Shown piece by piece: positions 33,423-53,690 of a stretch of DNA of 64,000 bases. Source of the DNA: Escherichia phage EC6; sequence record JX560968. One strand, 5' to 3'. Position 1 is the stretch's first letter. Each line of letters begins with the position of its first letter. The translations under genes were made by a program, and so were the position numbers. The notes under the pieces were generated by a model. That model worked only from the letters and a program-made list of their open reading frames with translations, was not told the origin of the DNA and did not search any database.

Positions 33423-33491
33423 TAGTTATAAAAGAGAGGGGTTCATACCCTTCTTTGAAGAAAAAGTTTAAATGAATTTCAGGAAGAGTGT

Positions 33492-34800: not shown

Positions 34801-34815
34801 ATATGGAGAGTCACA

Positions 34816-35863
34816 ATGGAGAAGTACACATTAAAAAAACCTTCCCGATTCAGTTACACATGTTTTTATCGACTCTGACAGTATTGCCTATAAAGGGGCT
34901 TGTGTAGTTGAGAAAGCAAAATATAAATACGTCAATAAACTCACAGCAGAAGAGTCTGAACCATTTGATAATGCAAAAGATGCTGCAAGATGGTTAGCAG
35001 ACCAGAGAATCCTTGTGGAAGAGCTTGGCCTAGCATTTGATGAAGATGAATGGGAAAGACAGACTTGGAAAGAAGCTAAGAGTGAAAAAGAAGCTATCAT
35101 GGCTACTCAACAGGTGCTTCAGGAATGGCTTAAGGTTGTTGGTAAAGAAAGAACTTGGGTAGGTTATTTAACAGAGAAAGGTGTGCATAAACATAAAGAC
35201 ATTAAAGGTCTTGAGCACCAATATCAAGGTAACCGCAAAGATGCTGTCACACCAACACACTTAGTTGCTTGTCGTGAATATCTTCTGTCAAGACCAGAGT
35301 TCAAACTAATTCTTGATGGATTTGAAGCTGACTCTATCGTGATTGCTAAAGCTGAAAAGATGGGTAAAAAGGCTGCCTTAATGAGTATTGATAAAGACCT
35401 TCGACAAGCTGAAGGTACTTACTGTATTGATATGACTTATGAAAAGTCGCCTTTGATTTTCATTGCTGATAACAACGTTGGTGAAATTTGGGATTGTCCA
35501 ATAAAATCGACACCAAAAGCTAAGAAGACAGTTGGGGTAGGTTTTAAATTTCTTTGCTATCAAGCCGTGGCTGGTGATAATGCGGATAATTATTTCGGTT
35601 TAAAGGGTGTTGGTAAGGTTACTATAATGAAAGCCCTTGAAGGTAAAACCACTTACAAAGAGTGTCTTGATGCAATTTATGAGCTTTATGCTAAGAAAGA
35701 GTCATACACTTATGTCTCGTGGGATGGTCAAACAATTACCAGAACACCTTTAGAGTTAATGCAGCAACACTTTTTCTTAGCTTATCAGGAAAGAAACAAG
35801 AAAGATGATTTCACTTTTGATAAGTATGGGTGGACACCAAATGTTAACTCAACAAACTCTTAA
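34816..35863 (+). CDS. 5'-3' exonuclease / flap endonuclease (RNase H-like), reading frame interrupted at A7 run 34833-34839
   Basis: ATG 34816 gives MEKYTLKK then stop; +1 frame continues ...VFIDSDSIAYKGAC (FEN N-terminal motif) into track ORF 35015..35863 with H3TH motif AGDNADNYFGLKGVGKVT. Confidence 0.6.
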
Positions 35864-36332
35864 AGAATACCTACACTATGACCCCGAAACAGGGGTCTTT
35901 ACTTGGATTAAGAAGTCTGCTAAGCACACAAAAATTGGTTCTGTTGCAGGTACAAACTTAAAAGGTTACATCCGAATTTACTTGTTTGGTAAAGGGTACT
36001 ATGCGCATTCATTAGCTGTCCTATATATGGATGGTTATCTTCCTGAGTGTGTTGACCACAAGAACCATGTAACTCTAGACAATCGTTGGTTAAATCTGAG
36101 GGCATGTACACTATCAGAGAACCAATGCAATAGGTTGCTTAACAAAAACAATAAATCCGGTGTCAAAGGTGTGTACTACAACAAGAGGTATGGTAAGTGG
36201 TCTACACAGATAACTTTTCAGAAGAGAGTTTACTTCTTCGGCAACTATGACACGATTGAGGAAGCAGCAGAAGTTGTGAATAGAGAACGTCAACGTTTAC
36301 ACAAAGAGTTTGCTAATAAAGGTGATGAATGA
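35841..36332 (+). CDS. free-standing HNH homing endonuclease with AP2 DNA-binding domain
   Basis: HNH core VDHKNHVTLDNRWLNLRACTLSENQCN; AP2-like SGVKGVYYNKRYGKWSTQITFQKRVYFFGNYDTIEEAA. Confidence 0.6.
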   Translation: MLTQQTLKEYLHYDPETGVFTWIKKSAKHTKIGSVAGTNLKGYIRIYLFGKGYYAHSLAVLYMDGYLPECVDHKNHVTLDNRWLNLRACTLSENQCNRLLNKNNKSGVKGVYYNKRYGKWSTQITFQKRVYFFGNYDTIEEAAEVVNRERQRLHKEFANKGDE

Positions 36333-36830
36333 GAAAAATTAAAGGTTTTGGTAATTGCCCTGAGTATGGACATTGGATTTCACTTTGTGGGGAAATTGAC
36401 CCAGCAAAGCATTTTGGTTTTGTCTACCTAGTGTACTGCAAAAAGACTGGGCAGTACTATTTGGGTAAGAAACAGTTTAACAGTGTGACCAAAAGAAAAG
36501 TTGCTGGGAAGACTCGGAAGAAGGTAGTCACTAAGGAGAGTGATTGGATGACTTATGAGACTTCTTCTGAGTATATTAAAAAACGATATTGAGAGCTTTG
36601 GAAAAGAATTTTTTGACTTTTACATTATTCAAACCTACTACACAAAAGGTGGCCTAGTCTATGGTGAAGCAAACCTTCAACATAAATTCGATGTAATGAC
36701 AAAAAGGATTGACTCTAAGCTCAGACTCTTCTACAATGCCAACATTGCAGCAATTAAGTTTATCACTAAAGAAACTTATGAAGATGCTGAAAAAAGAATC
36801 CATAAGGTAATGAAAGCAAATTGTGCTTGA
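36329..36830 (+). CDS. GIY-YIG-like endonuclease, two overlapping ORFs (36329..36592 and 36555..36830) separated by a frame change at A6 run 36578-36583
   Basis: N-terminal GFVYLVYCKKTGQYYLGKK resembles GIY-(10)-YIG motif; second ORF continues in +1 frame. Confidence 0.35.
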
Positions 36831-36851
36831 TAACTATTGAGAGAGAATAAA

Positions 36852-37100
36852 ATGTTTAACAAAAGTAAAGCTGTGAGTCATGTAGCAAAGGTTGACAGCA
36901 AGATTGAAGAACTTGAGCGCATCCTTGCAAATGCCAGAGAGTCAATAATTAAAGAAGTTGAAGCTGTTGAATCTCAAATGCAGCACCTAATGCTTAAACG
37001 CCAAGAGCTACGTGAGCATCTAGAATATATTGAAACACGAGAGCTAAAAGTTAACAGATATTTTAAGGAGTCCGAATGTTTAACTCAAGAGAATCAGTAA
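36852..37100 (+). CDS. hypothetical coiled-coil protein
   Basis: 82 aa from ATG 36852. Confidence 0.3.
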   Translation: MFNKSKAVSHVAKVDSKIEELERILANARESIIKEVEAVESQMQHLMLKRQELREHLEYIETRELKVNRYFKESECLTQENQ

Positions 37101-37831
37101 AAAACTGGAACCTTCGTTGTGGAAACACTCAAAAGCAACCTTACAGTAATGAGTATTGGGAATCTTTAAAATCTCAATCTCTGTGTATGCTTGAAGAAGC
37201 AAAAGAGCTTGTAAAAGCAATTGAAGAGAAAGACCCCATTGAGACACTGGATGCTCAGGCAGATTTGCAATATGTTCTTGACGGTCTGATTTATCTGTCA
37301 CAGCATGACCATAATGGTGCTATGAAAGCTGTTTGCCATAATAATGACCTGAAGTACACAGATGACTATGAAGAAGCTTTAAAACGTCTTGCAGATATTG
37401 AGAAGCGTACTGGTCAAGAGTGTATTATCAGAATGTCAGTGGTTGATGGTAAAGAGTGGTATGCGATTGTCCGTGCAGCCGATGGGAAGATTATGAAGCA
37501 ATCAAATCTCCCTAAAGTACAGCTTGGTGAATACATTGTAGAGCTTGAAAGCCAAGAACTTTTTGTGGTAGTATCTGATACATGCGTTATCTGCAAAGGT
37601 ATTGTAGGTAGCTTAAAGGATTTGGGTGTAGATGGTTTTGTAGAAGTTAATCCAATTACCTCTAAAGCAGATAAAGATTTCTGTAAAGAGAATGGACTAT
37701 GGATTGCAGATATTGTCTACTACGATGGTGAGCAGTTCCATGTAACCTCATACCCGAAACTGAATTATGATGCTAATAACCTGAAGTGCTGGTTAAAAGG
37801 GGTTGGTTATAATGGATTCACAGAACATTAA
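37076..37831 (+). CDS. MazG-like nucleotide pyrophosphohydrolase (putative)
   Basis: EEAKELVKAIEE...LDAQADLQYVLDGL matches the all-alpha NTP-PPase EExxE...D pattern. Confidence 0.35.
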   Translation: MFNSRESVKNWNLRCGNTQKQPYSNEYWESLKSQSLCMLEEAKELVKAIEEKDPIETLDAQADLQYVLDGLIYLSQHDHNGAMKAVCHNNDLKYTDDYEEALKRLADIEKRTGQECIIRMSVVDGKEWYAIVRAADGKIMKQSNLPKVQLGEYIVELESQELFVVVSDTCVICKGIVGSLKDLGVDGFVEVNPITSKADKDFCKENGLWIADIVYYDGEQFHVTSYPKLNYDANNLKCWLKGVGYNGFTEH

Positions 37832-38135
37832 TAAAGAAGGTGTGGCTCAGAAGAGCCACTTCTCAAACTATAATATTTCTATGACGGTGTTTATGTATGA
37901 CCCGTTACTTGAGAAGTATGGTGAGACTCCAGATACACTTCTGGATAATGAACAAGTTTTAAAAGCAGTCCTGTACAAATATGGGATTGATATTGAGAAA
38001 GAGTATTCCTTTGAAATCTGCCAACACAGAAATACTTTTGGTAAGGTTGTGATGGCTCCACTCTTTATGGGTGTAGAAAGGACTGACTACGGTTGGTTAT
38101 ATCTAAAAAGAAACTTGGAGAAATACCGTGTCTAA
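37803..38135 (+). CDS. hypothetical protein
   Basis: 110-aa ORF. Confidence 0.3.
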   Translation: MVIMDSQNINKEGVAQKSHFSNYNISMTVFMYDPLLEKYGETPDTLLDNEQVLKAVLYKYGIDIEKEYSFEICQHRNTFGKVVMAPLFMGVERTDYGWLYLKRNLEKYRV

Positions 38136-38463
38136 AGTAAAAAAGCTATCTTATGATGACATTATCTCAGGTGCTAAGTTAGGTGTTGATAGTATAGGAC
38201 AAGATATCAAGCACGGAGACACAGTTATGTACTGTGATGACCGAAGAGGAAGAAGTGCAATCTTGTTTGGAAGAATTGTTTGCAAGATACGAGGCAATTA
38301 CGTTGTTGCAGACATGTGTGAGAACACTACACAAGAGCTTGAAGCAATTATGAATGGCAACACATCATCGTGGTTCCTGGATTGTATGCACACTTCTTCA
38401 GTCACAAAAGTAAGTGATAAGTTTTACGATATGTGGCAGAATGAGCAAATTTTCAAGATTTAA
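38128..38463 (+). CDS. hypothetical protein
   Basis: 111-aa ORF. Confidence 0.3.
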   Translation: MSKVKKLSYDDIISGAKLGVDSIGQDIKHGDTVMYCDDRRGRSAILFGRIVCKIRGNYVVADMCENTTQELEAIMNGNTSSWFLDCMHTSSVTKVSDKFYDMWQNEQIFKI

Positions 38464-38469
38464 ACTAGG

Positions 38470-38492
38470 GAGCCTCTTCGGAGGCTCTTTTC
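38470..38492 (+). terminator. rho-independent terminator with UUCG tetraloop
   Basis: GAGCCTC-TTCG-GAGGCTC then TTTT. Confidence 0.6.
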
Positions 38493-38509
38493 ACCTGTAG
38501 GATTTAAAA

Positions 38510-40744
38510 ATGATTAAGACAATTAAAAAATCAAACGGTACAGTAGTAAGCTTTGACCCAGAAAGACTGAATAAGTGGGCATCATGGGCAGATAAGCGTG
38601 GTATTATTTGGTCAGAAGTCACTATGGAAGCCATGAAACGTGTCTATGAAGGTTGCACTACAAAAGAGATGCACCAAGCTATGATTGATGTTTGTGTTGA
38701 TAAACAAACTCAAGAGTACTCAGACATGGCTGGACGGCTACTTCTAGGGATTATCTACAAAGAAGCCTTTGGAGGCTTTACTAAGGTTCCTACGCTGGTT
38801 ACCTTCGTTAAAAATATGGAGAGAGCAGGACTTTGGGAGAAGATGGACTATTCTCAGGAAGAGCTTGAATACCTGCAAGGATACATTGTGCACTCAAAAG
38901 ATATCTCTTATGGTTATGCAGTCCTGAAACAGTTCAGAGATAAATATGGAATCCGTGATATTAAAACGGGAAGACTTTTTGAGTCACCACAATTTATGTT
39001 TATGGGTATGGCTATGAAAGCCTTTGAGAAGCAACCAAAGCACCGTAGACTACAAGATGTTATTAAGCTGTACACTTACCTATCTGACCTGAAGATTAAT
39101 GCTCCTACGCCTTATCTGAATGGTTTAAGAGCTACTAAATCAGGTTATGCGTCATGCTGTTTGATTAAAGCGAATGATACTGCTGAATCTCTAGGTATTG
39201 CCGCAAAGGTTGCCTATGACATGACCACAAAGCAAGCTGGTATTGGTATGCTGATGGAGACTCGCACTATTGGTGATGGTATCCGTCAAAATACTATTGA
39301 GCATATGGGTAAACTGCCTTATTACAAGCTTGTACGTTCATCTGTAGAGGCAAACAAACAGAAGAGCCGTGGTGGTTCAGCTAACAACTTCTACACTGCT
39401 CTAGACCCGCAGATTGAAGATTTACTGCGTTTGAAGCACCCTACAACGGTTCCTTCTAAACGTATTAATGAGATGGACTACTCATTCGGTACAAATGATT
39501 ATTTCTGGCAGTGTGTTCAATATGATACAGACTGGTTGCTATTCTCTTACAAGGATGCACCAAAGCTCTATGACATGTTCTACACAGCATCTGCTGATGA
39601 GTTTGCTATGGCAGTTGGTCACGCAGTACATTCAGGTGTTAAGCACAGACGGGTGAAGGCTCGTGAAATTGCTAAACTGTTTATCCAGCAGCGTTATGCA
39701 ACAGGCCGTGTGTACCCATTCTTTACGAATAATGCAAACACACATACACCATTTAAAGAACCTTTGAAGATGTCAAATCTTTGTATGGAAATTGTGTTGC
39801 CAGTGTACGGCTTTGAGAAAGAGACAGACCTTTACAGAGACGCTGCTGTGAAAGAGGATGGTGAGGTAGCTCTTTGCTTCCTAGCTAGTTTGGTTGCAGG
39901 GAGAATTTCAGAAGATGAATACGCTGACGTTGCTTATTATGCTCTTGCAATGGTTGACTCCGTTATTGACCTTATGGATTATCCGTATCCGTCGATGCGC
40001 AACCATGTTCAGAAGCGTCGTTCTGTTGGTATTGGCCTTACAAATGTGGCTCATTACCTTGCAAAAAACTACGTGAACTACTCTTCAAGAGCAGGTAAGA
40101 CGAAGCTTCATGAGCTTGCTGAAATGCACTCTTACTACTTACACGAAGCTTCTTTAAGGCTTGCTAAAGAACGTGGTGTGCCTGAGTATATGCAGTTCAC
40201 TAAGTATCCTGAAGGTTGGGTTCCTCCGAAGACAGCTAACAGGAAGATTGATGAGAAGCATGATGCAAAACTAAGATATGATTGGGATGACTTAGCACAA
40301 CGTATTAAAGAAAATGGTGGAATCCGCAACTCTGTATTAGAAGCTTACATGCCTAATGAGAGTTCTTCACTGGCAACTAATACGACAAACGGCTTGTACC
40401 CAATTCGTGACTTTATTTTAACTAAAAAGTCTGCAACTGGTAACGTGCTGTTTATTGTTCCAGATTATGAAGAGTTGAAGTATGTCTATGAAATTGCTTG
40501 GGGTATTGACACCTTTGACCTGATTGATTGTTATGCAATTGTTCAAAAGTTCACTGGTCAAGCTATCTCTTCAGATTTCTATGTTGACTACGCAAAAGCT
40601 AAGAAGGTATCATTGGCTCAAGCTTTGAAGTACATGATTTATGCCAACTCAGTAGGTATGAAAACCATGTACTACCTTAACAGTCGCATCGGTGTAGGTA
40701 AATCTGCACTGCAAGATGCTTATTGCGAGGGTTGTGGTGTTTAG
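38510..40744 (+). CDS. nrdA: ribonucleotide reductase class Ia large subunit
   Basis: 744 aa; N-terminal ATP-cone; active-site SNLCMEI; C-terminal Cys pair. Confidence 0.85.
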   Translation: MIKTIKKSNGTVVSFDPERLNKWASWADKRGIIWSEVTMEAMKRVYEGCTTKEMHQAMIDVCVDKQTQEYSDMAGRLLLGIIYKEAFGGFTKVPTLVTFVKNMERAGLWEKMDYSQEELEYLQGYIVHSKDISYGYAVLKQFRDKYGIRDIKTGRLFESPQFMFMGMAMKAFEKQPKHRRLQDVIKLYTYLSDLKINAPTPYLNGLRATKSGYASCCLIKANDTAESLGIAAKVAYDMTTKQAGIGMLMETRTIGDGIRQNTIEHMGKLPYYKLVRSSVEANKQKSRGGSANNFYTALDPQIEDLLRLKHPTTVPSKRINEMDYSFGTNDYFWQCVQYDTDWLLFSYKDAPKLYDMFYTASADEFAMAVGHAVHSGVKHRRVKAREIAKLFIQQRYATGRVYPFFTNNANTHTPFKEPLKMSNLCMEIVLPVYGFEKETDLYRDAAVKEDGEVALCFLASLVAGRISEDEYADVAYYALAMVDSVIDLMDYPYPSMRNHVQKRRSVGIGLTNVAHYLAKNYVNYSSRAGKTKLHELAEMHSYYLHEASLRLAKERGVPEYMQFTKYPEGWVPPKTANRKIDEKHDAKLRYDWDDLAQRIKENGGIRNSVLEAYMPNESSSLATNTTNGLYPIRDFILTKKSATGNVLFIVPDYEELKYVYEIAWGIDTFDLIDCYAIVQKFTGQAISSDFYVDYAKAKKVSLAQALKYMIYANSVGMKTMYYLNSRIGVGKSALQDAYCEGCGV

Positions 40745-40799
40745 TTTTAACAACTATGAGGGTCGTAAAAGACCCTCTAAAAATAACTTTGGAGAGACC

Positions 40800-41057
40800 A
40801 TGAAAGATTTAATAGAAAAACATGAGCGACCTATATACTTGCTCCATAAGCCTCGGAAAACGATGTACTATGTGAGTAGCACAGACATGATGATAAAACA
40901 AAATGATGACTCATGGGTTGCTGGTATCTCTTACATCTCTACAGCAGATGGTAAAATCTACGCAAGACCTTATGAGATGTTTAACAAAGAAAACTGGGAA
41001 GTTTTAGACAGAAAACAAGCCTTAGAAATGATAAAGAAAGGAGAAATCACGCTATGA
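40800..41057 (+). CDS. hypothetical protein
   Basis: ATG 40800 with GGAGAGACC RBS; preceded by GAGGGTC-GTAAAA-GACCCTC hairpin. Confidence 0.3.
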   Translation: MKDLIEKHERPIYLLHKPRKTMYYVSSTDMMIKQNDDSWVAGISYISTADGKIYARPYEMFNKENWEVLDRKQALEMIKKGEITL

Positions 41058-42127
41058 TTAACCAGCACCCAATCTTTTTAGGTGGTGAGAGAAAAACTTT
41101 TGACTCACTTAATAAACACTACCCAAAAATCTTTGAGCTTTATAAGCAACAAAAAGCACAAGACTGGTCAGAAGATGAGTTCCCTTTTGAACAATCACGT
41201 CTTGATTTTGAGAGTGTCCCAGCATCAATGTCAGGTGTAATGCTTGAGATTCTTAAGTGGCAATGGGAAGCAGATACCCAAGTTGCTAAGAGCTTGGCAT
41301 TCGCCTTTGCACCATTCATCTCTGATGACATCTATGCAACTGCAATTATGAAGCAGTCTGAGATTGAAAACCTACATGCTCTTACTTACTCAGAGATTGT
41401 AAGGCAATGTATTAAAAATCCTGAAACAATCTTAGATGAGATTAACCAGAATGTTGCTGTGCAAGACCGATTAAAAACTGTGAATCGTGTTCTTGAAGAA
41501 TTACTGGATGAAGGTATAAACTATCGTCTGAGTTATGTGCGTGATTCACTTCTGGACAAAGACCCTTTACACTTCCATAAAGTGATTCTGAAAGGGCTGT
41601 TTGCAGTGACTGCGCTTGAAGGTATATCTTTTATGGCATCCTTTGCATGTACTTTTGCACTTGATGCTCAAGATAAATTTCAGGGTATTGCTCAAGCTGT
41701 CCAGAAAATTATGCTTGACGAAATCCTTCACACTAAAATTGATATTGAAGTTTTAAAAGAAACTTTAAGAGATGATGAGTGGCAGAAAGCTTTTCAACAA
41801 ATTCTTCCAGAGATTAAAGTAATCTTAGATGAAGTAGTTGAAAGTGAAGAGAAATGGTCGTATTATATCTTCTCCGAAGGACGTGCTGTAGTTGGTTTAA
41901 ATACAAAGCTTCTTCATGAGTGGGTTTACTATAATGCTGCCCCACTGTATGATATGTTTGGCATTCAAAGAGACTTTGTAGCTCCTAAAGAACCACCTTT
42001 GAAGTACATGATTAAGAAGATGGAAATTGATAAAGAGCAGAATGCTAATCAGGAGCAACAGAACGGTGCGTACCTATTGAATACTGTTGTAGATGACTTA
42101 AATAGTGGATTTTTAGAGGTTCCTTAA
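41054..42127 (+). CDS. nrdB: ribonucleotide reductase class Ia small subunit
   Basis: 357 aa; ferritin-like motifs incl. VTALEGISFMASFA; directly after nrdA. Confidence 0.75.
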   Translation: MINQHPIFLGGERKTFDSLNKHYPKIFELYKQQKAQDWSEDEFPFEQSRLDFESVPASMSGVMLEILKWQWEADTQVAKSLAFAFAPFISDDIYATAIMKQSEIENLHALTYSEIVRQCIKNPETILDEINQNVAVQDRLKTVNRVLEELLDEGINYRLSYVRDSLLDKDPLHFHKVILKGLFAVTALEGISFMASFACTFALDAQDKFQGIAQAVQKIMLDEILHTKIDIEVLKETLRDDEWQKAFQQILPEIKVILDEVVESEEKWSYYIFSEGRAVVGLNTKLLHEWVYYNAAPLYDMFGIQRDFVAPKEPPLKYMIKKMEIDKEQNANQEQQNGAYLLNTVVDDLNSGFLEVP

Positions 42128-42369
42128 TGACTTATGTAATTTACTCCAAAACTGGATGCCCTCAGTGTGAGACTGCAAAGAATTTTGCAAAAGCTCGTGG
42201 TATTGACCATGTTGTGAGAATGTTAGGGCAGGACTATGAACTATCAGACCTGATTGATATTGCACAGATGCCAGTTCGTCAGATGCCATTCATCATGAAA
42301 ACTGATGGTCAAAATCTAAAACCTGTTGGGACGCTACAGAATTTTATGGCAGAGGTGAATAATGCTTAA
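42127..42369 (+). CDS. glutaredoxin/thioredoxin-like redoxin (NrdC/NrdH-like)
   Basis: 80 aa, N-terminal CPQC active-site motif; adjacent to nrdAB. Confidence 0.55.
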   Translation: MTYVIYSKTGCPQCETAKNFAKARGIDHVVRMLGQDYELSDLIDIAQMPVRQMPFIMKTDGQNLKPVGTLQNFMAEVNNA

Positions 42370-42568
42370 ACGCCTTTGGGAAGGTTTGGTTATTGATGCA
42401 CCAGTTATTGTAATTGGTATGCTTATTGCTAACCTATTTACTGACTTTAAACAAGGTTTGTTGTTTGGAGTCATGTTACTATGGGTTATATTTGAAATTC
42501 TAGAGATACATCTGGGCATCACTGAAAAACTAAGAGAACTCTTTTCTAAGTTTTCTAAAAAGATTTAA
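42362..42568 (+). CDS. small membrane protein
   Basis: 68 aa, two hydrophobic segments. Confidence 0.3.
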   Translation: MLKRLWEGLVIDAPVIVIGMLIANLFTDFKQGLLFGVMLLWVIFEILEIHLGITEKLRELFSKFSKKI

Positions 42569-42575
42569 AATGAAA

Positions 42576-42597
42576 GGGTCTCTTCGGAGACCTTTTT
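42576..42597 (+). terminator. rho-independent terminator with UUCG tetraloop
   Basis: GGGTCTC-TTCG-GAGACC then TTTTT. Confidence 0.6.
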
Positions 42598-42616
42598 AGC
42601 ATGTAAAGGGGCAATA

Positions 42617-43813
42617 ATGAACAAAGTACAAATTATTAAAAAGAATGGCTCACTTGAAGAACCGGATATCAAAAAAGTTTTAGCAGCAGTCACAAAGTCG
42701 GCTAATAGGGTTGGTTATAAAGAGCTTCCACCAGATGTTACTCAAGCTCTTGAGTCAGCATTTATGAGGATTCTGGTAAAATCTACTAAACAGAATAATT
42801 TGCTAATCTCGGTAAATGATATCCACAGTATTGTTGAGGGTGCTTTGGCAGAAGTCAATCATGAGATTTATGAGTCTTACTCAACATATAGAAATTACCG
42901 TAAAGAGGTTGCTCAAAATTGGGATGAGCTTTACCAAAAGACTAAAGACACACTCTTCTTAGGTGACCGTGAAAACGCTAACTTTGACAGTAGTTTAATT
43001 TCTACAAAAGGTTCAATTATTCGTGGTTACCTGACTAAAGAAATCTTTAAACAGTACCATTTAACACCAGAGGAACTTGAAGCCATTGAAAAAGGGTTTA
43101 TCTATATTCATGATTTAAGAGACCTGATTTTTGGTGGTATCAACTGTTGCCTGTTTGACATTGGTAAAGTGCTGAAAGGTGGCTTTGAAATGTCTGGCAT
43201 TGAATACTGTGAACCAAAGTCTGTACTGTCAGCTTTACAGGTTATTGGTGATGTAGTTCTTTCAGCAACTGCACAGCAATTTGGTGGCTTTACTTTAGCA
43301 GAGATTGATAAGGTACTTGTACCGTATGCTAAGAAGTCTCTACGTTACCATGCTGAAAAAGCAACAGCTTATGGTATTCCTAAAGAACATTACCACAACT
43401 ATGTCATGGAGCAGCTACAGATTGAATTAACTCAAGGTTTTCAGTCTCTTGAAATGAAGCTCAATACCGTACCTTGTAGCCGTGGTGATTTTGCATTCAC
43501 AACTTTAACATTTGGTTTACTTGACCCAGACATGTCTAATGAAGACAACCGATTACAATACATGATTGCAAGTACCCTCCTAGATGTTCGTATGAATGGA
43601 CAAGGTAAGAGCAAGAAGCCTGTTGTATTTCCTAAACTGGTTTATATTTATGACCAGAAGAGACACGATGAGAATATCTGTCAAGGACACCTGTACAGTA
43701 AAGCCATTGAGTGTTGCTCTAAAGCAATGTATCCAGATTTCTTAAGTGTATCTGGTCATGGTGCTGTAGCAGAGGCTTTTGAGCGTTCTGGTAAGGTTAT
43801 TTCACCGATGGGT
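42617..43813 (+). CDS. nrdD: anaerobic ribonucleoside-triphosphate reductase, exon 1
   Basis: N-terminal ATP-cone (IIKKNGSLEEPDIKKV); ORF ends ...ISPMG where intron begins with UAA. Confidence 0.75.
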
Positions 43814-45077: not shown

Positions 45078-45087
45078 AACTTGACAA

Positions 45088-45126
45088 GGTGGTGTGAGTC
45101 TTGATAGGCTTACATCACCTTTTTAT
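45088..45126 (+). terminator. rho-independent terminator
   Basis: GGTGGTGTGAG...CTTACATCACC stem (11 bp incl. two G-U) then TTTTTATT. Confidence 0.5.
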
Positions 45127-45230
45127 TGGATGTTAGATATGGCAGAGAGCATCATTGGCCTGTTCATAGGTTCTGTCTTACTGGGGTTCTTTTTAGGACT
45201 CTCTTATTGTGAGTTGAGAGATAAGTTAAA

Positions 45231-45431
45231 ATGTTTAAAATATCAAAAACGTTGATATACATACTTCACATTCTAATCTTCTTCTTTGGAGTTAGCGTTA
45301 TGGTATGGGGTTTTTCAGACCCACAATGGAGTTTCACATATCATGGTCAGATGGATTTATGGTCATGCTTCAAACCATTTTTAGGGTTAGCTATAGCATT
45401 CAGTGCATTGCCAGCTAAGGTGAAATTATGA
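45231..45431 (+). CDS. small membrane protein
   Basis: 66 aa, two hydrophobic segments. Confidence 0.3.
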   Translation: MFKISKTLIYILHILIFFFGVSVMVWGFSDPQWSFTYHGQMDLWSCFKPFLGLAIAFSALPAKVKL

Positions 45432-45537
45432 TTAAGTTGAACAAAAACAGTTAGAGTGGATTAAAGATTACGCCTCAGAGTGTGGCTCTTGCGAAAAGAA
45501 TCACGTAAGATACTCAACATTTCATACGGTCTTCACA

Positions 45538-45822
45538 TTGTACATAGGTGACAACGTTCTAAGTGATTCCGTAGAAGATGGTGTAGCGTTGCCTAAGGAA
45601 TTGCTTGACAAATTAGCTATAGTCACTGGAACTTGGTCTGAAGAAGACGGTCATGAATTATTTGACAATGTTGTCTTCTACAACATTGAAAATATTATGA
45701 ATCCAGAGTACATTATGCTAATGACTTGTGCACAAGACTGTGTGCCATTACAAAACTTCATTAAAGAACACTGTGAAGAATTTATTACTAAACAAGTTCC
45801 TTGTCATGTGGTGTTTGAATGA
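45538..45822 (+). CDS. hypothetical Cys-containing protein (possibly starts at ATG 45428 with a frame change at A5 run 45443-45447)
   Basis: Frame is open upstream to 45433; ATG 45428 overlaps previous stop but is in another frame. Confidence 0.25.
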   Translation: MYIGDNVLSDSVEDGVALPKELLDKLAIVTGTWSEEDGHELFDNVVFYNIENIMNPEYIMLMTCAQDCVPLQNFIKEHCEEFITKQVPCHVVFE

Positions 45823-45857
45823 GTAAAAGGCTTAAATAATATTGGTGAGGTAACTAG

Positions 45858-46342
45858 ATGAATTACATGGAGATTAGACCATTTGACACAGCTAATGGTG
45901 AAGGGGTTCGTGTAAGCCTCTTCGTAGCTGGCTGCAAACATCACTGTGAAGGCTGCTTTAACAGGGAGTCTTGGAAATTTAATGCTGGTAAAGAGTTTAC
46001 TTATGCAAACCTCTATGGCATCATCAAGTTAATGGATGATAATGCTATCAGTGGGCTGTCAATACTTGGTGGGGAGCCTCTGGATGATAGAAACATTCAA
46101 GACGTTACCAATATATGTAAACGTATTAAAACTGTTTACCCAGAAAAATCTATATGGCTTTGGACAGGTTTTCAGTTACACGAAAAATCCACCTCGATGT
46201 GATGAAATATGTTGACGTGGTGATTGATGGTAAGTATGATTCTTCTAAACCAACAGTTAAACCTTATCGTGGTTCTGATAACCAAAACCTCTGGAGAAAA
46301 GAGTATGGATGGCAAGGTGATTGTCAATGGCGAGCAGAATGA
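45858..46342 (+). CDS. nrdG: anaerobic ribonucleotide reductase activating protein (radical SAM), frame interrupted at A5 run 46184-46188
   Basis: N-terminal half has CKHHCEGC (CxxxCxxC) and IWLWTGFQLHE; -1 frame continues KIHLDVMKYVDVVIDGKYD...RGSDNQNLW, matching NrdG C-terminus. Confidence 0.65.
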
Positions 46343-46580
46343 TTATTCTGGTAAGTGGACTTACGACATTAACAAGTTAGATGCTTGGATGATTTATACG
46401 AGAGAAAAATTTGGTGAACGTTCATTATGTGCTCTTGCAACGATGGTGAAGAACGTTACCTTTGTCATAAACGAGTCAGATAAGTTTGGAGACTTCTACA
46501 GGATTCAAAACATCAGAGAAGGTATAACTCCAATCGGTATCACTGAAGAAGAACTTCATAAGTTCTGTATTAAACTTTAA
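46305..46580 (+). CDS. hypothetical protein
   Basis: ATG 46305 with GGAG RBS; 91 aa. Confidence 0.3.
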   Translation: MDGKVIVNGEQNDYSGKWTYDINKLDAWMIYTREKFGERSLCALATMVKNVTFVINESDKFGDFYRIQNIREGITPIGITEEELHKFCIKL

Positions 46581-46595
46581 TGAGAGAGACTAAAA

Positions 46596-46862
46596 ATGGG
46601 AATTTTAGGTAATATGAAAGCTGGCTTTTTGAAGGCACTGGCAAAAGCAGCAGCAATCATTGCTATGACTGGGAAGCAGGTTGGTGTAGATGCTTCAGCA
46701 ATTGCACAAGTTCTTGCAAGCCAAATTGAACAGCAGCCTTACATCCACGTTGGACGTGGTAAAGGTGGTAAAAAACAAGCACATCGACCAACTGGTGCAG
46801 CAGCAATTAAACGTGCAGCTAAAAAAGCTAGTAACCATAAACGTAACAAGAAGGCTAAATAA
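46596..46862 (+). CDS. hypothetical basic protein
   Basis: 88 aa, Lys/Ala-rich C-terminus. Confidence 0.3.
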   Translation: MGILGNMKAGFLKALAKAAAIIAMTGKQVGVDASAIAQVLASQIEQQPYIHVGRGKGGKKQAHRPTGAAAIKRAAKKASNHKRNKKAK

Positions 46863-46864
46863 TC

Positions 46865-47185
46865 ATGAGCAAAGTTTATAACACTCGTAAATTACAGATT
46901 TTCGTACTGTGCCAGTTTATGGCTAAAGAGTATAACTACTACTATTGTGGTACAGGATTCATTAGTGATAATGACGGCTCATATCTACCATTCAAAGAGG
47001 CTGTAAAACTCTTCAATGAAGAGAAAAGCTCTAAGAAAGATATTGAAAAGGTTAAGCTAACCTACAGTAAGAAAGATAAGAAGATTATCTGCCTAGATAA
47101 CTTTGTGAAAGTTACTGGAGAAGCAAAAGAGTTTATGGATGAGAGTGAAATCTCATTCACAAGCATCTTGAAAGTAGCTCAGTAA
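46865..47185 (+). CDS. hypothetical protein
   Basis: 106-aa ORF. Confidence 0.3.
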   Translation: MSKVYNTRKLQIFVLCQFMAKEYNYYYCGTGFISDNDGSYLPFKEAVKLFNEEKSSKKDIEKVKLTYSKKDKKIICLDNFVKVTGEAKEFMDESEISFTSILKVAQ

Positions 47186-47197
47186 ACAGATACTATA

Positions 47198-47230
47198 AGG
47201 GGACTGTAAAGGTTCCCTTTTTATTTTTAT
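47198..47230 (+). terminator. rho-independent terminator
   Basis: AAGGGGAC...GTTCCCTT hairpin then TTTTTATTTTTAT. Confidence 0.5.
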
Positions 47231-47239
47231 GGAGATACT

Positions 47240-47755
47240 ATGTACCTGTCAAACCTGAAACGTTCGGCTGCAATGTCAGTTCTAAGACTCAGCTTTGAGG
47301 AACGTCAAGAGTTCATTGACTCCCACCAATATGACCCTTCCAACTCCAATCACATGATTCTCTGGAATCGTGAGAGTACTCGTGAAAGAGCATTATTCCG
47401 ATATTACCCATACTACACCATAGACAACCTGTATGAATGTTTTGTTGTGAAGAACACCATTACAGTACTCAATAAACTTTGCAGATACACAGGTAGTCAA
47501 TCCTTCACATTAGGCCACCACAAACCTGTTACAAAGGGTGGTGAGCATCACTGTGCAAACTGGTTTATCCAGACTAAACTTGATAATCAGAAGCAAGGAG
47601 ATAGTCTTTTAAGCACCTCTAAGATGACCTATGAAGAGCAAGAGAAATATATCAAAAATAATATGCCAGATGTGCTTGACAACAACTATACAGATTTGGC
47701 AATATCTCTCCTGTTGAAGTTCGAGACAGTTTATAGGGCAACTTATAATGGCTAA
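47240..47755 (+). CDS. HNH-motif nuclease-like protein (putative)
   Basis: LGHHKPVTKGGEHHCANWFIQTKLDNQKQGD resembles an HNH core. Confidence 0.35.
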   Translation: MYLSNLKRSAAMSVLRLSFEERQEFIDSHQYDPSNSNHMILWNRESTRERALFRYYPYYTIDNLYECFVVKNTITVLNKLCRYTGSQSFTLGHHKPVTKGGEHHCANWFIQTKLDNQKQGDSLLSTSKMTYEEQEKYIKNNMPDVLDNNYTDLAISLLLKFETVYRATYNG

Positions 47756-48026
47756 AGAAAAGTGGGAGATTTTACCATTAGTCAGTGAAGGAGGTAATGG
47801 TTGTGAAATGTACATGATACGTGGTCATGTTCCAGAGCCAATTGCACTTGAGATGGTAAACAACTTTACAGATGGTTCTTACAAAGACTTAGGCGAACCA
47901 ACTGTCAAGCAACAATGGGTTAAACCTGTACCAGACAGCACAGGTAACTGTAGTGTACTTTATCACGTTGTAGACCCTGCAAAATGCAAATCTGCAATGG
48001 CAGTAACAAACGTAACTTTTGATTGA
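47748..48026 (+). CDS. hypothetical protein
   Basis: 92-aa ORF. Confidence 0.3.
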   Translation: MAKEKWEILPLVSEGGNGCEMYMIRGHVPEPIALEMVNNFTDGSYKDLGEPTVKQQWVKPVPDSTGNCSVLYHVVDPAKCKSAMAVTNVTFD

Positions 48027-48037
48027 GAGAGAAAACT

Positions 48038-48919
48038 ATGAAAACATCTATCCGTGTTACAGTTCATTCACCAACTAAAGGGACTCATGAAGAAGAGTTT
48101 AACATCGTCCAATTCCCTTCTGGTGAGATTGGTGGACACTTTTCGCCAGAGTTTGTTGATTTTACTGCTTATGCAGCATCATCCATCAACAATGTGATTA
48201 TGATTGTAAAAGGTTATGACAAGGACACATTGTTTGCTGTGGCACTTGCTAAAGAAGCAATTGATGATTTAATTCCTCATGATTATGCTTTAAAGACTGT
48301 CATCTTTTACTACTTACCAAATGCACGATATGACCGTCACATGTTTAAAGGTGACGCAGCAGCTTTAAAGGTTTTTGCTAAACAGATTAATGCAATGGGA
48401 TTTGGCGCAGTCTGTGCAGTTGACCCTCACAGCTATGTACCAGATAACCTGTTTAACTGCTTCCAGAGTATTCCTCAAAAGGAGATTGCAGTTCACTATG
48501 CAAATGACCCACTGGTTGATTACTTAGTAGCCCCAGATGCAGGTGCTGCTAAGAAGGTTGCAGAGACCGCTAAAGAGGTGGATAAACCATATATCACAAT
48601 GTCTAAGGTGCGTAACCTTAAGACTGGTGAAATTACTGGTATGCGAATCCTTGATGATGTTGATTTGACAGATAAAACCGTCATGATTCTGGATGATATC
48701 TGTGATGGTGGTCGAACCTTCATAGAAGCAGCTAAGCATCTCCGTGAAGCAGGTGCAAAACGTGTGGAACTCTATGTAACACATGGTATCTTCTCTAAAG
48801 ATGTTGAAAACCTTCTTGACAATGGCATTGACCACATCTACACTACAAACTCTTTAGGGGAAGCTAAAGACCGTGGCTTAACACATTATAGCCAAGTTAC
48901 TGTAGCAAACCTTGATTAA
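48038..48919 (+). CDS. ribose-phosphate pyrophosphokinase-like protein (Prs-like; candidate ADPR-pyrophosphate synthetase)
   Basis: PRPP-synthetase-type nucleotide-binding loop VMILDDICDGGRT; about 293 aa; directly upstream of NAMPT-like gene. Confidence 0.6.
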   Translation: MKTSIRVTVHSPTKGTHEEEFNIVQFPSGEIGGHFSPEFVDFTAYAASSINNVIMIVKGYDKDTLFAVALAKEAIDDLIPHDYALKTVIFYYLPNARYDRHMFKGDAAALKVFAKQINAMGFGAVCAVDPHSYVPDNLFNCFQSIPQKEIAVHYANDPLVDYLVAPDAGAAKKVAETAKEVDKPYITMSKVRNLKTGEITGMRILDDVDLTDKTVMILDDICDGGRTFIEAAKHLREAGAKRVELYVTHGIFSKDVENLLDNGIDHIYTTNSLGEAKDRGLTHYSQVTVANLD

Positions 48920-48928
48920 AACTTTATA

Positions 48929-48950
48929 GGGGGCTTCAAAGCCCCATTTT
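48929..48950 (+). terminator. hairpin with short U-tract (weak terminator/attenuator) between Prs-like and NAMPT-like genes
   Basis: GGGGC-TTCAAA-GCCCC then ATTTTG. Confidence 0.4.
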
Positions 48951-48965
48951 GAGAGAGATTAAAAG

Positions 48966-50747
48966 ATGACTAAATCACTTTATGCAGTACCAGCAGGTCT
49001 TAATGCAGATGCTTACAAGGCATCACATATATATCAGTATCCAGATGTCACACAGTACCTTATGCTGAACCTGACACCACGTAGTGATAAATGGTTTAAC
49101 AGCCCTTTAGCAATTGATGGTGTAGTAGCTTTTGGTATTCAACGTTTTATTAAAGATTACTTGATAGACCACTGGAATGCCACCTTCTTTGGACGTGACA
49201 AAAAAGAAGTAATTGACGAAATCTTAGAAGTCATGAACGGTGTTCTGGGTAAAGATGCTATTGGTCGAGAACATTGGGAAGCACTTCACGACTTAGGTTA
49301 TCTACCAGTTGAAGTATACGCTGTAGAAGAAGGTACAGTTGTCCCTATGCGTGTACCAATGATTGTCTTCCAGAACACTGTTTCAGGTTTCCATTGGGTA
49401 GCAGGGTATCTAGAAGATGCTTTCTCTGCTGAGATTTGGAAGGCTTGTACCATTGCAACTATTGCATTGCACTACAAACGTATCTGTAAGAAGTGGTCTG
49501 ACCTTACTTGTGATAACGACTTACATTTGCCTTATCAGTGCCATGACTTTGCTATGCGTGGTATGTCCGGCTTTACTGATGACGCATTTAACGCTGTAGG
49601 CCACTTAACCAGCTTTAAAGGTACTGACAGTTTCCCTACTGTGTATACGGCTAAACGAATCTATGGACAGTCCTACCCAATCTCTGATATTGGCAGCTCT
49701 GTACCAGCCACTGAACACTCTGTAATGTGTGCAAACATTGCTTGGGAAGGTGGTAATGAGTTGATTGAAGAAGAAAGACGCTTTAAAGGTGAGTTACAAA
49801 CCTTCCGTCGTTTCTTAACAGAAACTTACCCAACTGGTATTGCAAGTGTTGTTTCAGACACTTATAATTTCTGGAGAACTGTATCAGAAATCTTACCAGC
49901 GCTTCGTAAAGAGATTATGGAACGTGATGGCAAACTGGTCATCCGTCCTGACTCTGGTGACCCTGTACATATTGTCACAGGTTATAAAGCAATCCACTTA
50001 GAGTGTGCTAAAAAGGCTTATTATGAACATCTTAGCAAGCTGGAAGCTAGTGATACAATGCTGAATGCTGTTCTGAACATGAAGCTTGAAAACATCAGCT
50101 ATGGTATTGCTGGATGGCTACTGTCAGAAGGCTACGAAATGGTTGTTGACCGAGAAGACTTTGAAGTTGCTGATACAGTGATGTTGAAAAATGCTTATAT
50201 GGTTGGCTCTGCAAACGTTGTAACACGTCCTGTAGCAGAGATTGATGGAGCTATTAAGACCCTGTACAACATCTTCGGAGGGACTATCAACTCTAAAGGT
50301 TTTAAGGTACTGGATGAGCACATTGGACTTATCTATGGTGACTCTATCACGTTGGAACGTGCAAACGAAATCCTGAAGCGTCTGTATGAAATGGGTTTTG
50401 CAAGCTCTAACGTAGTTTTTGGTGTAGGTTCTTACACTTATCAGTATATGACTCGTGACACCTTTGCATTTGCTGTTAAAGCAACTCTTGCAAGCATCGG
50501 TGGTAAAGAGATTATGCTTGCAAAAGACCCTAAAACAGATAGTGGTGTTAAGAAATCTGCCTTTGGTGGTGTAGCACCTATGTGGGATGGTGATAAGCTG
50601 AAAGCTGTAGATGGCTACGGATTCCAGAGTTTTGCAGATGTACTTGACCACCCAGCTTGTGCTTTACGTTTAGTCTTTAGTGACTCTGAGCAGTTTGGTT
50701 ACACAACTCTTGGTGATATTCGAAATAATATTGACAAGCAGCTTTAA
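48966..50747 (+). CDS. nicotinamide phosphoribosyltransferase-family protein (NAMPT/NadV-like; candidate nicotinamide ADPR transferase)
   Basis: NAMPT signatures IRPDSGDPV, GLIYGDS, NVVFGVGSYTYQ; 593 aa. Confidence 0.65.
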   Translation: MTKSLYAVPAGLNADAYKASHIYQYPDVTQYLMLNLTPRSDKWFNSPLAIDGVVAFGIQRFIKDYLIDHWNATFFGRDKKEVIDEILEVMNGVLGKDAIGREHWEALHDLGYLPVEVYAVEEGTVVPMRVPMIVFQNTVSGFHWVAGYLEDAFSAEIWKACTIATIALHYKRICKKWSDLTCDNDLHLPYQCHDFAMRGMSGFTDDAFNAVGHLTSFKGTDSFPTVYTAKRIYGQSYPISDIGSSVPATEHSVMCANIAWEGGNELIEEERRFKGELQTFRRFLTETYPTGIASVVSDTYNFWRTVSEILPALRKEIMERDGKLVIRPDSGDPVHIVTGYKAIHLECAKKAYYEHLSKLEASDTMLNAVLNMKLENISYGIAGWLLSEGYEMVVDREDFEVADTVMLKNAYMVGSANVVTRPVAEIDGAIKTLYNIFGGTINSKGFKVLDEHIGLIYGDSITLERANEILKRLYEMGFASSNVVFGVGSYTYQYMTRDTFAFAVKATLASIGGKEIMLAKDPKTDSGVKKSAFGGVAPMWDGDKLKAVDGYGFQSFADVLDHPACALRLVFSDSEQFGYTTLGDIRNNIDKQL

Positions 50748-50761
50748 AAGTATATGATAAG

Positions 50762-50784
50762 AGGCTCCTACGGGAGCCTTTTTA
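50762..50784 (+). terminator. rho-independent terminator
   Basis: AGGCTCC-TAC-GGGAGCCT then TTTTAATTT. Confidence 0.6.
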
Positions 50785-50800
50785 ATTTCTGGAGAAGACT

Positions 50801-51136
50801 ATGAAAATCAAAGAGATGAACATTAACATTGTCCTAGAAGAACGCTGGGATAACATCAAGAAGCCTGAAAATGGTCATAAGTTCCTCAACAAAATCTTAG
50901 TAGCAGCTAAAGAAGAACTGACTGGCAAGGTTGCAGCGGCAATCACAATAAAGGTCTGTGTAAAAGGTCTTCCAGATAATCACCAATTTGCACTTGACGA
51001 GTTTAAAGAAAGCTTCTACAATCCAAACAAACAGATGCTTGAAAGTAACTTTGCAGTATCTACAAGTATCGTCCATGACAGAAGCTTTATCCTTTACAAA
51101 AATATGAGAGGTGAGTCATGCAAGCATATTGGATAG
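50801..51136 (+). CDS. hypothetical protein
   Basis: 111-aa ORF. Confidence 0.3.
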   Translation: MKIKEMNINIVLEERWDNIKKPENGHKFLNKILVAAKEELTGKVAAAITIKVCVKGLPDNHQFALDEFKESFYNPNKQMLESNFAVSTSIVHDRSFILYKNMRGESCKHIG

Positions 51137-51294
51137 AAATTTTACTGTCACTTGGTAGTGTAGCAGTATTTGTTTACCTTCTTTGCAAGTACTATGCAGA
51201 GTACAAAAAATGTGACTACTGTAATGGGGAAGGTTATACAAGAGCAGGTTGTTGCCCTATGTGTGGTGGTTCTGGTAAAATGTTTAACAAGTAA
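51118..51294 (+). CDS. small membrane protein with DnaJ-type zinc finger (58 aa), not in ORF track
   Basis: MQAYWIEILLSLGSVAVFVYLLC (TM) followed by CDYCNGEG...CPMCGGSG (CxxCxGxG repeats). Confidence 0.3.
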   Translation: MQAYWIEILLSLGSVAVFVYLLCKYYAEYKKCDYCNGEGYTRAGCCPMCGGSGKMFNK

Positions 51295-51322
51295 TTTAAC
51301 AGTAAACTAAGAGGAAAGTATT

Positions 51323-53690
51323 ATGCGCATGGTAAACGACCACGCAGAAGTGATTAAGAGTTCAACTTCTTTAGAGACGTCTCAGGCACAGATTACAATG
51401 ACACCTGAAATGTTCAGCCTTTTGAGTTCTGGTGTATATACCTTTAAAGAAAGGGCAGTCATTCGTGAACTGTCATGTAACGCAGTAGATGCTCAGAAAG
51501 AAGCTGGAAAAGAGAACATCCCTTTCCATGTGCATTTACCTACTCGTTTTGAGCCTTACTTTGAAGTTCGTGATTTTGGAACTGGATTGACTCATGATAA
51601 AGTTATGAGTTTGTATCTAAACTACGGGGCTTCTACGAAGAATGACTCTAATGACTACATTGGTGCAATGGGTATCGGCTCAAAATCTCCATTTGCAATT
51701 GCTCAGTCATTCACAGTATCTAGCTATGTTGATGGTGTTGTTAATAAGTACTCTGTTTATCTTGAGAATGGTATCCCTCAAGTAACTAAGCTGACTACTA
51801 ACCCAATAAAAGAACCTAATGGTTTAGCTGTACGTGTAGCAGTTGCTGACCATCGTATCTCAAAGTTCTTTGAAGAGGCTGGTCACGTATACTCATACTT
51901 TGCTGTAAAACCAGAAAGTAATATCGAGTATGACGATATATTAGCAGATATGAACGTCATTGCCCGTGAAGAAGGTGTTTATGATGCCATGATTCATAAG
52001 CAAAGCTGGCGTTCTAGTGGTAACAGGACAGAGTTTAATGTGGTGATGGGTAATATTGCCTATCCAGTGAACATGGAAGCATTACTTGGTGATGATTTCT
52101 TCAAAGTATTGCCAGAATTTTTCCGTAGGAGCGTAGACCTTGTAAACATCTACATGCCTATTGGTTCAGTTGCTATTGCAGCTTCTCGTGAAGCATTGCA
52201 GATGAATGACACGACAAAAAACTGTTATCATTGAGGCTACTAAAAAGATAACTGAAGCAATTACAAAGGATGTTATCAAGAAAGTTAACAGTCAACCTAC
52301 ACTTATGGATGCTGCACAGGCTTATGCTGAGTTACGTTTGAACTCACGAGAGATGTTTAATGCTGTGTGTCCAAAGCTAGAGTGGGGTGGTGTTAAGCTT
52401 GATTCTCTGGAAGAAGAATTACTAAACATTCGTCGTGGAATTATCTACGCAGAAGACGGCTCAGTTATCTATGAACGTGATGGTAAAGGTAATATTAAGG
52501 TTGATAGGAACGGAAACAATATCCCTAAAGTAGATTATCTTTATAATCCAGTTGCTTATGTTAAGTTCAACTCTTTAGAAAGTAAGATTCGTGCAACAGC
52601 ACTTTCCTACACTCAAGAGGCAAGTATGTTCAATATCTTTGGCGCAATGCGTAAAAGTCAAATTGAACAGTTTTTGTTTGTTATAAACGACCGTCGCAAT
52701 AAAAATGGTACTGAGAAGACTGTAGGACGCAATCAGATTCTGCGTGGTGCATGTCGAGACTATGCCAGTGAGTCTAGTCTGTTTCACAGATACAACGGTA
52801 TCGTCTTTGTATTCTCGACTGAAAAAGAGTTAGACAACCTAATCAATCTGCACAAACTTGATAAAAGCTTGTTAAAGATTGTGAAGATGTCTGATAAGGA
52901 ACATCATTATCAGCGTAAAGAAGCTGTAAGAGGTGTTGTAAAACTTTGGAAAGCTGTTCCAGCAGAAGGTGTAGCTTCATACAAAGAGGTGTCAGAGGAC
53001 TTAGATACGATTGAAGAACCTCAGCTTTACATTAAGGCAATTGGTGACACAGTTGATGGTGAATGTTTTTGCTCATCTCCAGAAGATGTAGCTAAGTCAG
53101 TTGCTAATGTTACAGGTAAGACAGTCTATGTTTTCCGAAAAGCAAATTGGAAAAAGATACCAGAAGATTGGATTGAAGTAGATGAGAAACTCTTGAACGA
53201 CAGCTTAACTGATGTTCACTGGATTAACCATAACAGATATATGACGCGTATCTATATGAATGGTGTCCTTGACCTTACAAGCAGTTGGATTATTGCCAGA
53301 AACTTTACATTCAATAACAGGAAGATTTCTCGTGGTTATTGCTATTCACGGGATACAAACAAAACTATCTTCCTAGAAGGAAATGAAGAGGCTGTAGAGG
53401 CAATGTTCGGTAAAATCCAATACGTTGCTGCACCGTTTGCATACACTTATACTATTAGTAGATTGCAAACTTTGAAAGAATGTCTTGACAACGATACAAA
53501 GCTGTACAAGAAAATCAAGAAAGCTGGTGACCGTATGGTCATTAAGGTGACAAACTACCTTTCAAAAAGAAAACAAGAAAACTTCTTGCTTTCTCATTTA
53601 GATTGGAATAAAGTGTCACCCATCGAAGTGAGTAAGTTCTTGGGCTTTGATGTGAAGTGTGTTCCAGAAGGGACTACAATTTACGATTAA
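51323..53690 (+). CDS. rIIA: rIIA-like protein with GHKL ATPase N-terminal domain; two overlapping ORFs (51323..52234, 52206..53690) joined by a frame change at A6 run 52216-52221
   Basis: Bergerat-fold motifs ELSCNAVDA, RDFGTGL, GAMGIGSKS; combined about 797 aa; followed by rIIB-like gene as in T4. Confidence 0.5.

Follow-up and report, generated by a model that had tools for sequence, protein, structure and literature searches.

The nine single-base frame breaks found in the window, by which we mean the whole 64-kb stretch of DNA analysed here, are, judging from sequence comparison, very probably errors of base calling or of the consensus, made in reading the DNA of a viable and otherwise ordinary Felixounavirus, and not features of the phage DNA. 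We favor this reading because the breaks lie at A/T runs, are with one exception not found in relatives, and are unaccompanied by gene decay. The genome in the window is that of a FelixO1-like myovirus (Felixounavirus), and more than 200 GenBank phages are about 95% identical to it. The breaks affect eight conserved genes (Table 1), and consist of five insertions and four deletions, so that the mixture of +1 and -1 directions reported in the initial annotation holds. That annotation had named the FEN, GIY-YIG, nrdG, rIIA and tail fiber genes, plus a possible sixth site at 45443-45447. All six breaks are present at the positions it gave, where the relatives have single, intact ORFs, and the doubtful sixth is an A5 run, one base short by comparison with 25 of 25 relatives, that breaks a conserved 131-aa gene. 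The list was incomplete, however, as there are three further private breaks, at 29883, 30403 and 33461.

Table 1. Single-base frame breaks in the window, the corresponding state in relatives, and the products of the corrected genes.
Gene	Extent	Break	Strand	State in window	State in relatives	Corrected product	Profile match
Tail fiber	15908-18278, split into 15908-17533 and 17454-18278	17508..17514	+	Insertion: G added at 17508, immediately 5' of T6 (17509-17514), i.e. extra C 3' of A6 on minus strand	Extra base not in PHB11, SME50 (97% identical locally) nor 13 more distant relatives	789 aa, stop-free; 757/789 identical to PHB11	Both halves match phrog_4277 (tail fiber) end to end
'Minor tail protein', break 1	29630-30440	29883..29889	+	Insertion: G added at 29883, immediately 5' of T6, i.e. 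extra C 3' of A6 on minus strand	Extra base in 0/23 alignments	Stop-free ORF once base removed	phrog_4251, E = 4e-145
'Minor tail protein', break 2	29630-30440	30403..30406	+	Deletion: A4; last ~12 codons altered	A5; length difference not divisible by 3 in 22/23 alignments		
93-aa protein	33397-33677	33461..33465	+	Deletion: A5	A6; 31/32 relatives one base longer (second count, 45/45 alignments)	88/93 identical to REP8	phrog_4982
FEN/RNaseH-like 5'-3' exonuclease	34816-35863	34833..34841	+	Insertion: A7 (34833-34839) then CC, extra C at 34840/34841; broken at codon 9	Single C; 32/32 relatives one base shorter, 3 exactly A7+C	348 aa; 342/348 identical to CRP22	phrog_107 exonuclease, E = 4e-66; PF01367 weak, below cut-off
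SegE-like GIY-YIG endonuclease	36329-36830, split into 36329-36592 and 36555-36830	36578..36584	+	Insertion: A6 (36578-36583) then extra C at 36584	Extra C in 0/33 relatives	166 aa; 162/166 identical to relative	PF19835, E = 4e-27
131-aa protein	45428-45822	45442..45447	+	Deletion: C+A5, C/A run one base short; broken at codon 5-6	CC+A5 or C+A6; 25/25 relatives one base longer (second count, 38/38 alignments)	118/131 identical to relative	phrog_4382
nrdG (anaerobic RNR activase)	45858-46342	46183..46187	+	Deletion: A5	A6 in 33/33 relatives	161 aa; 159/161 identical to relative	PF13353, E = 3e-43
rIIA	51323-53690, split into 51323-52234 and 52206-53690	52216..52222	+	Insertion: A6 (52216-52221) then extra C at 52222	Extra C in 0/27 relatives	788 aa; 777/788 identical to relative	Halves match phrog_612 (RIIA) at profile positions 1-287 and 286-716

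When the window is set beside closely related genomes, a comparison the initial annotation had in mind, eight of the nine alleles have no match in any relative compared: none of 15 relatives shares the tail-fiber allele, and elsewhere the count is zero among 23-46 alignments per site, which represent 14-21 distinct local sequences. For two of the sites, rIIA and SegE, the comparison was extended to 213 GenBank Felixounavirus records, in which neither 51-mer has an exact match; the best match is 98.0% in each case (50 versus 51 bases for rIIA, 50 of 51 bases for SegE). The ninth allele is that at 30403. There all distinct relative alleles but one read GCTGAAAAAGAG, and the one exception also has A4, adjoining a 12-base length variant. 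Wherever the run is present, the run lengths at the nine sites are invariant among relatives. No independent assembly with the same alleles was found, the phage records and IMG/VR contigs being at most about 95.6% identical to the window, and a search of the contig index for exact protein matches gave none for the truncated rIIA ORF and none for intact NAMPT.

Could the indels be real and very recent, the result of mass pseudogenisation, or of sequencing a clone or population with defective genomes? We consider this very unlikely. It is true that homopolymers are natural indel hotspots, and that a phage grown in laboratory hosts can probably do without rIIA, nrdG and the homing endonuclease, so that real mutations in these genes could be tolerated. 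Occasional private single-base indels are also seen in relatives, as in SWJM-02 at the window equivalents of 41001 and 46309. Nine independent frameshifts are another matter. In the interval 32200-53900 (21.7 kb), the window has seven private indels of a length not divisible by three, whereas 20 of 26 relatives with at least 92% identity have none, and the most uncompensated ones in any of the 26 is two. Moreover, the broken genes include the tail fiber along with other conserved genes, such as the 'minor tail' protein and the FEN-like exonuclease, and the tail fiber is presumably among the genes that a lytic phage cannot lose. The break is at about residue 534 of 789 and would leave a truncated product of 541 aa, and loss of the C-terminal part should abolish infectivity. 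Felixounaviruses are strictly lytic, so that defective genomes could not be sheltered as prophages.

A number of other sites were considered and rejected as private to the window. Those at 41001 and 46309 are the private deletions of SWJM-02; relatives vary among themselves at 45120 (T5/T6); two relatives share the window's state at 48929 (G5), and two at 59733; and 5981 and 22713, which like 48929 lie between ORFs, were rejected as frame-breaking private sites. The stretches at 45120 and 59733 have small or inconsistently annotated ORFs, and length-variable runs elsewhere, at 45120, 48929 and 62045, are in non-coding DNA. The 723-nt nrdG of SWJM-02 was rejected as the intact form of that gene, being a fusion that arose through the deletion in SWJM-02 itself; at its normal length the gene has 486 nt, as in REP8, CRP22, P219 and BPSELC-1. 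Introns were also rejected as a cause, as they explain none of the nine breaks. Elsewhere in the window a group I intron explains the split of nrdD, and the split of the DNA polymerase gene is probably due to an intron or endonuclease insertion.

What has become of the coding sequences beyond the breaks? One single-base edit per site, and hence two in the 'minor tail' gene, yields eight full-length ORFs with no internal stops, all of the length found in relatives and with 90-99% amino acid identity. Downstream of the breaks, 20 of the window-private substitutions scored in the restored frame are synonymous and 5 nonsynonymous, matching a control set of seven intact genes (29 and 8), and there is therefore no pseudogene decay. 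That is, the signature of purifying selection is kept in the original frame downstream of the breaks, with neither relaxed selection nor, after correction, secondary stops, which argues against real loss of these genes. The proposal of the initial annotation, that these are homopolymer indel errors and not biology, is supported by the privacy of the alleles, the restoration of the ORFs, the purifying selection, and the outlying number of breaks.

The form of the breaks is less simple than changes in homopolymer length, as had been supposed. The four deletions do shorten runs, but the five insertions leave the run length unchanged and place a different base beside it. On whichever strand reads poly-A, all five insertions are a C directly 3' of an A6-7 run, although the true base after the run is T at three of these sites, G at one, and C at one. 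Counting both strands, only 46 positions in the 64 kb are directly 3' of an A run of six or more, and these hold five of five insertions; the placement is far beyond chance. There is also a dependence on run length, in that about 8 of about 50 true A/T runs of at least six are affected, versus 1 of about 190 runs of five. Replication slippage alters run length, and would not add an adjoining C five times out of five, and we know of no mutational or selective process that predicts a C after an A-run in every case. That a C is added beside the A-run, and the run itself is not lengthened, strengthens the case for artefact.

What sort of error might leave this pattern? The miscalling looks flow-based and 454-like, though the platform is something we infer from the pattern. 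The 454 flow order is T-A-C-G, and in all five insertions the A-run is followed by a spurious C, which fits that order; this signature is what one would predict if the flow that follows A were over-called. With such a fixed-order chemistry, a very large A incorporation might be under-called, giving a shortened run, or residual A signal in the next flow, C, might be read as one spurious C. Modest or strand-biased coverage could then allow systematic errors to persist into the consensus. Among the nine indels there is no A after a T-run and no T after a G-run, and the missing A-after-T-run class needs an A-specific explanation, which the behavior of dATP-alpha-S in pyrosequencing might provide. 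Ion Torrent is a less likely platform, as C follows A in only three of eight cases in its default flow order, and five C's in five insertions would be less expected. Flow-based platforms are known to under- and over-call homopolymers and to insert single bases near them, causing frameshifts in assemblies (PMC2323236, PMC3116506, PMC3623719). The window resembles assemblies in which Roche 454 or Ion Torrent homopolymer miscalls and CAFIE errors have reached the consensus: its indels are of one base, include insertions as well as under-calls, and cluster at long A/T runs, with a steep length dependence, a normal substitution profile, and frameshifts in otherwise intact genes. It differs in that the C-after-A6-7 insertions are unlike classical 454 carry-forward, which Huse et al. 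(2007) define as the insertion of a base before a run of that base still to come, and carry-forward so defined was rejected as the mechanism. Two sites are arguable fits to that definition, the tail-fiber site, where a CC lies two bases beyond the C, and the FEN site, where the C precedes CCC.

A further possibility is that genuine frameshifts are overcome during expression, by programmed ribosomal frameshifting or by transcriptional slippage on the A/T runs. We regard this as more improbable still than recent mutation. We give as little credence to the related notion that the indels are truly present in the phage DNA and that the phage stays viable because some full-length tail fiber, exonuclease, rIIA and other products are made, the A-runs permitting a low level of slippage in transcription or of +1/-1 frameshifting by the ribosome. 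At the break points in three genes there is an A_AAA_AAC or A_AAA_AAA, resembling the -1 slippery heptamers of programmed frameshifting as in the λ G/GT tail chaperone and dnaX (A_AAA_AAG), and in rIIA a +1 shift after AAC would be predicted to give exactly the protein of the relatives. However, the direction is wrong: the insertion sites need +1 (or -2), while the heptamers support -1, and the deletion sites, which need -1, are without the canonical X_XXY_YYZ motif. Shifts of both directions would be needed among eight genes that are unrelated. Programmed sites that are known are conserved, whereas eight of the nine alleles occur in no relative and that at 30403 differs in 22 of 23 alignments. 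Nor do the relatives have a two-frame architecture at the break sites, where all have single uninterrupted ORFs; rIIA, nrdG, the FEN-like exonuclease and the tail fiber are single ORFs throughout the genus. Efficient transcriptional slippage typically needs runs of at least 8-9, and the runs here are 5-7. As in slippage systems and the phase-variable tracts of contingency loci, frame in the window depends on a mononucleotide run, but here the runs are short and do not vary in length between relatives, and the window itself departs from that length at none of the insertion sites.

It is worth asking what the alternatives would entail. Real indels would leave a lytic phage, its tail fiber and replication genes broken, in need of a recoding mechanism without precedent, and a recoding explanation would imply a lineage-specific, genome-wide dependence on recoding. 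In other assemblies, a search for C directly after A6-7 is an easy way to look for this artefact. The present record can be repaired from the positions and corrections in Table 1; left as it is, it would lead to eight genes being wrongly annotated as split, as truncated or as pseudogenes. As sequencing errors in the genome of an ordinary Felixounavirus, the breaks carry no biological significance.

The window is a Felixounavirus genome, that of a FelixO1-like myovirus. A megablast of 34000-53000 matched 326 phage records, 203 of them with at least 80% query coverage and ~94-96% identity, all Ounavirinae/Felixounavirus, and the gene order is that of phages REP8, SWJM-02, CRP22, P219 and BPSELC-1. 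For comparison we used 114 loci from ~30 IMG/VR Felixounavirus contigs, which tile the window from ~2040 to 64000, and four GenBank tail-fibre loci. A whole-window scan sought indels, of lengths not divisible by three, that set the window apart from 75-80% or more of the relatives aligned there, and a separate scan covered 321 homopolymers one by one. Combined, the scans give nine window-private single-base indels within coding sequence; genes were identified from Pfam and PHROG matches of the corrected or partial proteins and from annotations in relatives.

Window-private single-base indels in coding sequence
Position	Change	Gene	Gene coordinates
17508	extra G before T6	tail fibre	15908-18278
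29883	extra G before T6	'minor tail protein'	29630-30440
30403	A5 to A4	'minor tail protein', last ~12 codons	29630-30440
33461	A6 to A5	93-aa protein	33397-33677
34840	extra C after A7	FEN/RNaseH-like exonuclease	34816-35863
36584	extra C after A6	SegE-like GIY-YIG endonuclease	36329-36830
45442	one base lost in C/A run	131-aa protein	45428-45822
46183	A6 to A5	nrdG	45858-46342
52222	extra C after A6	rIIA	51323-53690

The initial annotation had named frame breaks in five genes and a possible sixth at 45443-45447. All of these are present, each interrupting what in relatives is one ORF; the sixth is borne out by 25/25 relatives that are one base longer, and three further sites bring the total to nine. 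The four deletions shorten A or C/A runs; the five insertions directly adjoin a run and leave its length unchanged.

Comparison with related genomes, which had been proposed as a check, finds the alleles of eight sites lacking in all or nearly all relatives. The FEN site is one base shorter in 32/32, the extra C is missing in 33/33 at SegE and 27/27 at rIIA, nrdG has A6 in 33/33, and 33461 is one base longer in 31/32. The base at 29883 is missing in 23/23 alignments, and the tail fibre G in two close and 13 distant relatives, that is, in all. At 30403, 22/23 alignments show a difference that is not a multiple of three, and one distinct relative allele is also A4, adjoining a 12-base length variant. 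A 51-mer with the rIIA insertion at its centre, and another built likewise on the SegE insertion, each matched 213 GenBank records; the best match always aligned 50 record bases with 51 query bases (98.0%), and therefore none of the matching records has the extra C.

Might these genes be decaying in earnest? Real pseudogenisation is contradicted, in the first place by numbers. Across 32200-53900 we counted the indels that occur in a single genome and whose length is not divisible by three. Of 26 relatives of at least 92% identity, 20 have none and no relative has more than two uncompensated ones, far below the seven of the window, six of them within coding sequence. SWJM-02 (L002, OQ594353) carries two single-base deletions of its own, at the counterparts of window 41001 and 46309. 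Through one of them nrdG is fused to the ORF that follows, giving a 723-nt 'activating protein' annotation (a 'long' nrdG), and the other leaves a small ORF ahead of nrdB shorter; other public Felixounavirus genomes thus have isolated frame errors or mutations too.

Decay downstream of the breaks is likewise lacking. One single-base edit per site restores ORFs of the lengths seen in relatives, with no internal stops, and compared with relatives the corrected products have 757/789 identical amino acids for the tail fibre, 342/348 for the FEN-like exonuclease, 162/166 for the SegE-like endonuclease, 159/161 for nrdG, 777/788 for rIIA, 88/93 and 118/131 for the 93-aa and 131-aa proteins. Window-only substitutions 3' of the breaks, read in the restored frame, show no sign of pseudogene decay: 20 are synonymous and 5 nonsynonymous, against 29 and 8 in seven intact control genes, so selection has been at work on the original frame until the present. 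Moreover, replication slippage would alter run length, which the insertions do not, and the genes affected include the tail fibre of a strictly lytic phage, cut at residue ~534 of 789.

Could the breaks instead be decoded, by programmed frameshifting or transcriptional slippage? This too is contradicted, as the sites are not conserved in relatives and the runs are merely 5-7 long; the insertions would require +1 shifts where A_AAA_AAC/A motifs favour -1, and the canonical heptamer is missing at the deletions. We consider pseudogenisation and recoding, even taken jointly, very improbable. The private alleles, the intact restored genes and the abnormal count support what the initial annotation had proposed, assembly or sequencing error.

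The errors have a signature. On the poly-A strand, all five insertions are a C directly 3' of A6-7, with the run as long as in relatives; the base that should follow the run is T at three sites and G and C at one each. Both strands together hold 46 runs of at least six A, none followed by a spurious G or T; C is next in 18, and in five of these it is missing from all relatives. True runs of at least six are affected in ~8 of ~50 cases, runs of five in 1 of ~190. The 454 flow order is T-A-C-G, and with that fixed order a repeated 'C after poly-A' is what over-calling of the flow next after A would yield. Flow-based platforms are known for homopolymer under- and over-calls and for single-base insertions via carry-forward or incomplete extension, which lead to frameshifts in assemblies (PMC2323236, PMC3116506, PMC3623719), so the general error class is a published one. 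The carry-forward of Huse et al., however, places the extra base before a run of that base, a pattern that differs from a C after an A-run, and a 454-type source is therefore only what we infer.

Length differences also occur outside the nine sites. The A11 run at 62045-62055, apparently non-coding, ranges from A4 to A10 among relatives and, unlike the coding sites, is a genuinely polymorphic or hard-to-sequence homopolymer. Single-base length differences that set the window apart from all or nearly all relatives, apparently outside ORFs, lie at 5981-5985, 26198 and 60237-60243, each private, and at 48929-48933, common to two relatives. Those at 5981, 48929 and 60237 are at T5, G5 and A5 runs, the first two within terminator-like stem-loops; that at 26198 (TCTAAAATAC) is not at such a run. 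They may be the same class of artefact or natural variation. In the 61-64 kb region an intergenic unit, ATCAACGGGGAGGGRATGA ... CCCCACTAA ... CCTTAAACTAGGAGATTC(A)nATG, recurs upstream of successive small ORFs at 61221, 62095, 63321 and 63886 (+), with a variant near 59800. It is conserved, with four exact copies against none expected by chance, and probably serves the early region as a terminator/promoter/RBS cassette.

Between ORFs 42617-43816 and 44211-45077, a group I catalytic intron (43756-44080, +; Rfam RF00028, 53.6 bits, exceeding the gathering score) splits nrdD, which encodes the anaerobic ribonucleotide reductase; an HNH homing-endonuclease ORF is found there in SWJM-02 and CRP22 and is absent from the window. 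The family A DNA polymerase gene (25444-28978, -) lies in two parts, 26765-28978 and 25444-25998, with ~770 nt between that hold an Endonuclease VII-like ORF (26211-26693; PF02945, E = 6e-20) with sub-threshold group I intron half-matches on either side (E = 0.002 and 0.9). The gene is split in BPSELC-1, which lacks this ORF, and unbroken in CRP22 and P219. Between the FEN-like and SegE-like genes, an HNH_3 and AP2-domain homing-endonuclease-like ORF (35805-36332, +), present in SWJM-02 and BPSELC-1 and not in REP8 or P219, adjoins a second free-standing endonuclease gene, the SegE-like one.

The nine-site pattern of frame breaks, then, is not a biological feature of this phage. Its useful yield is nine corrections to the sequence, and 'C after A6-7' as a diagnostic.
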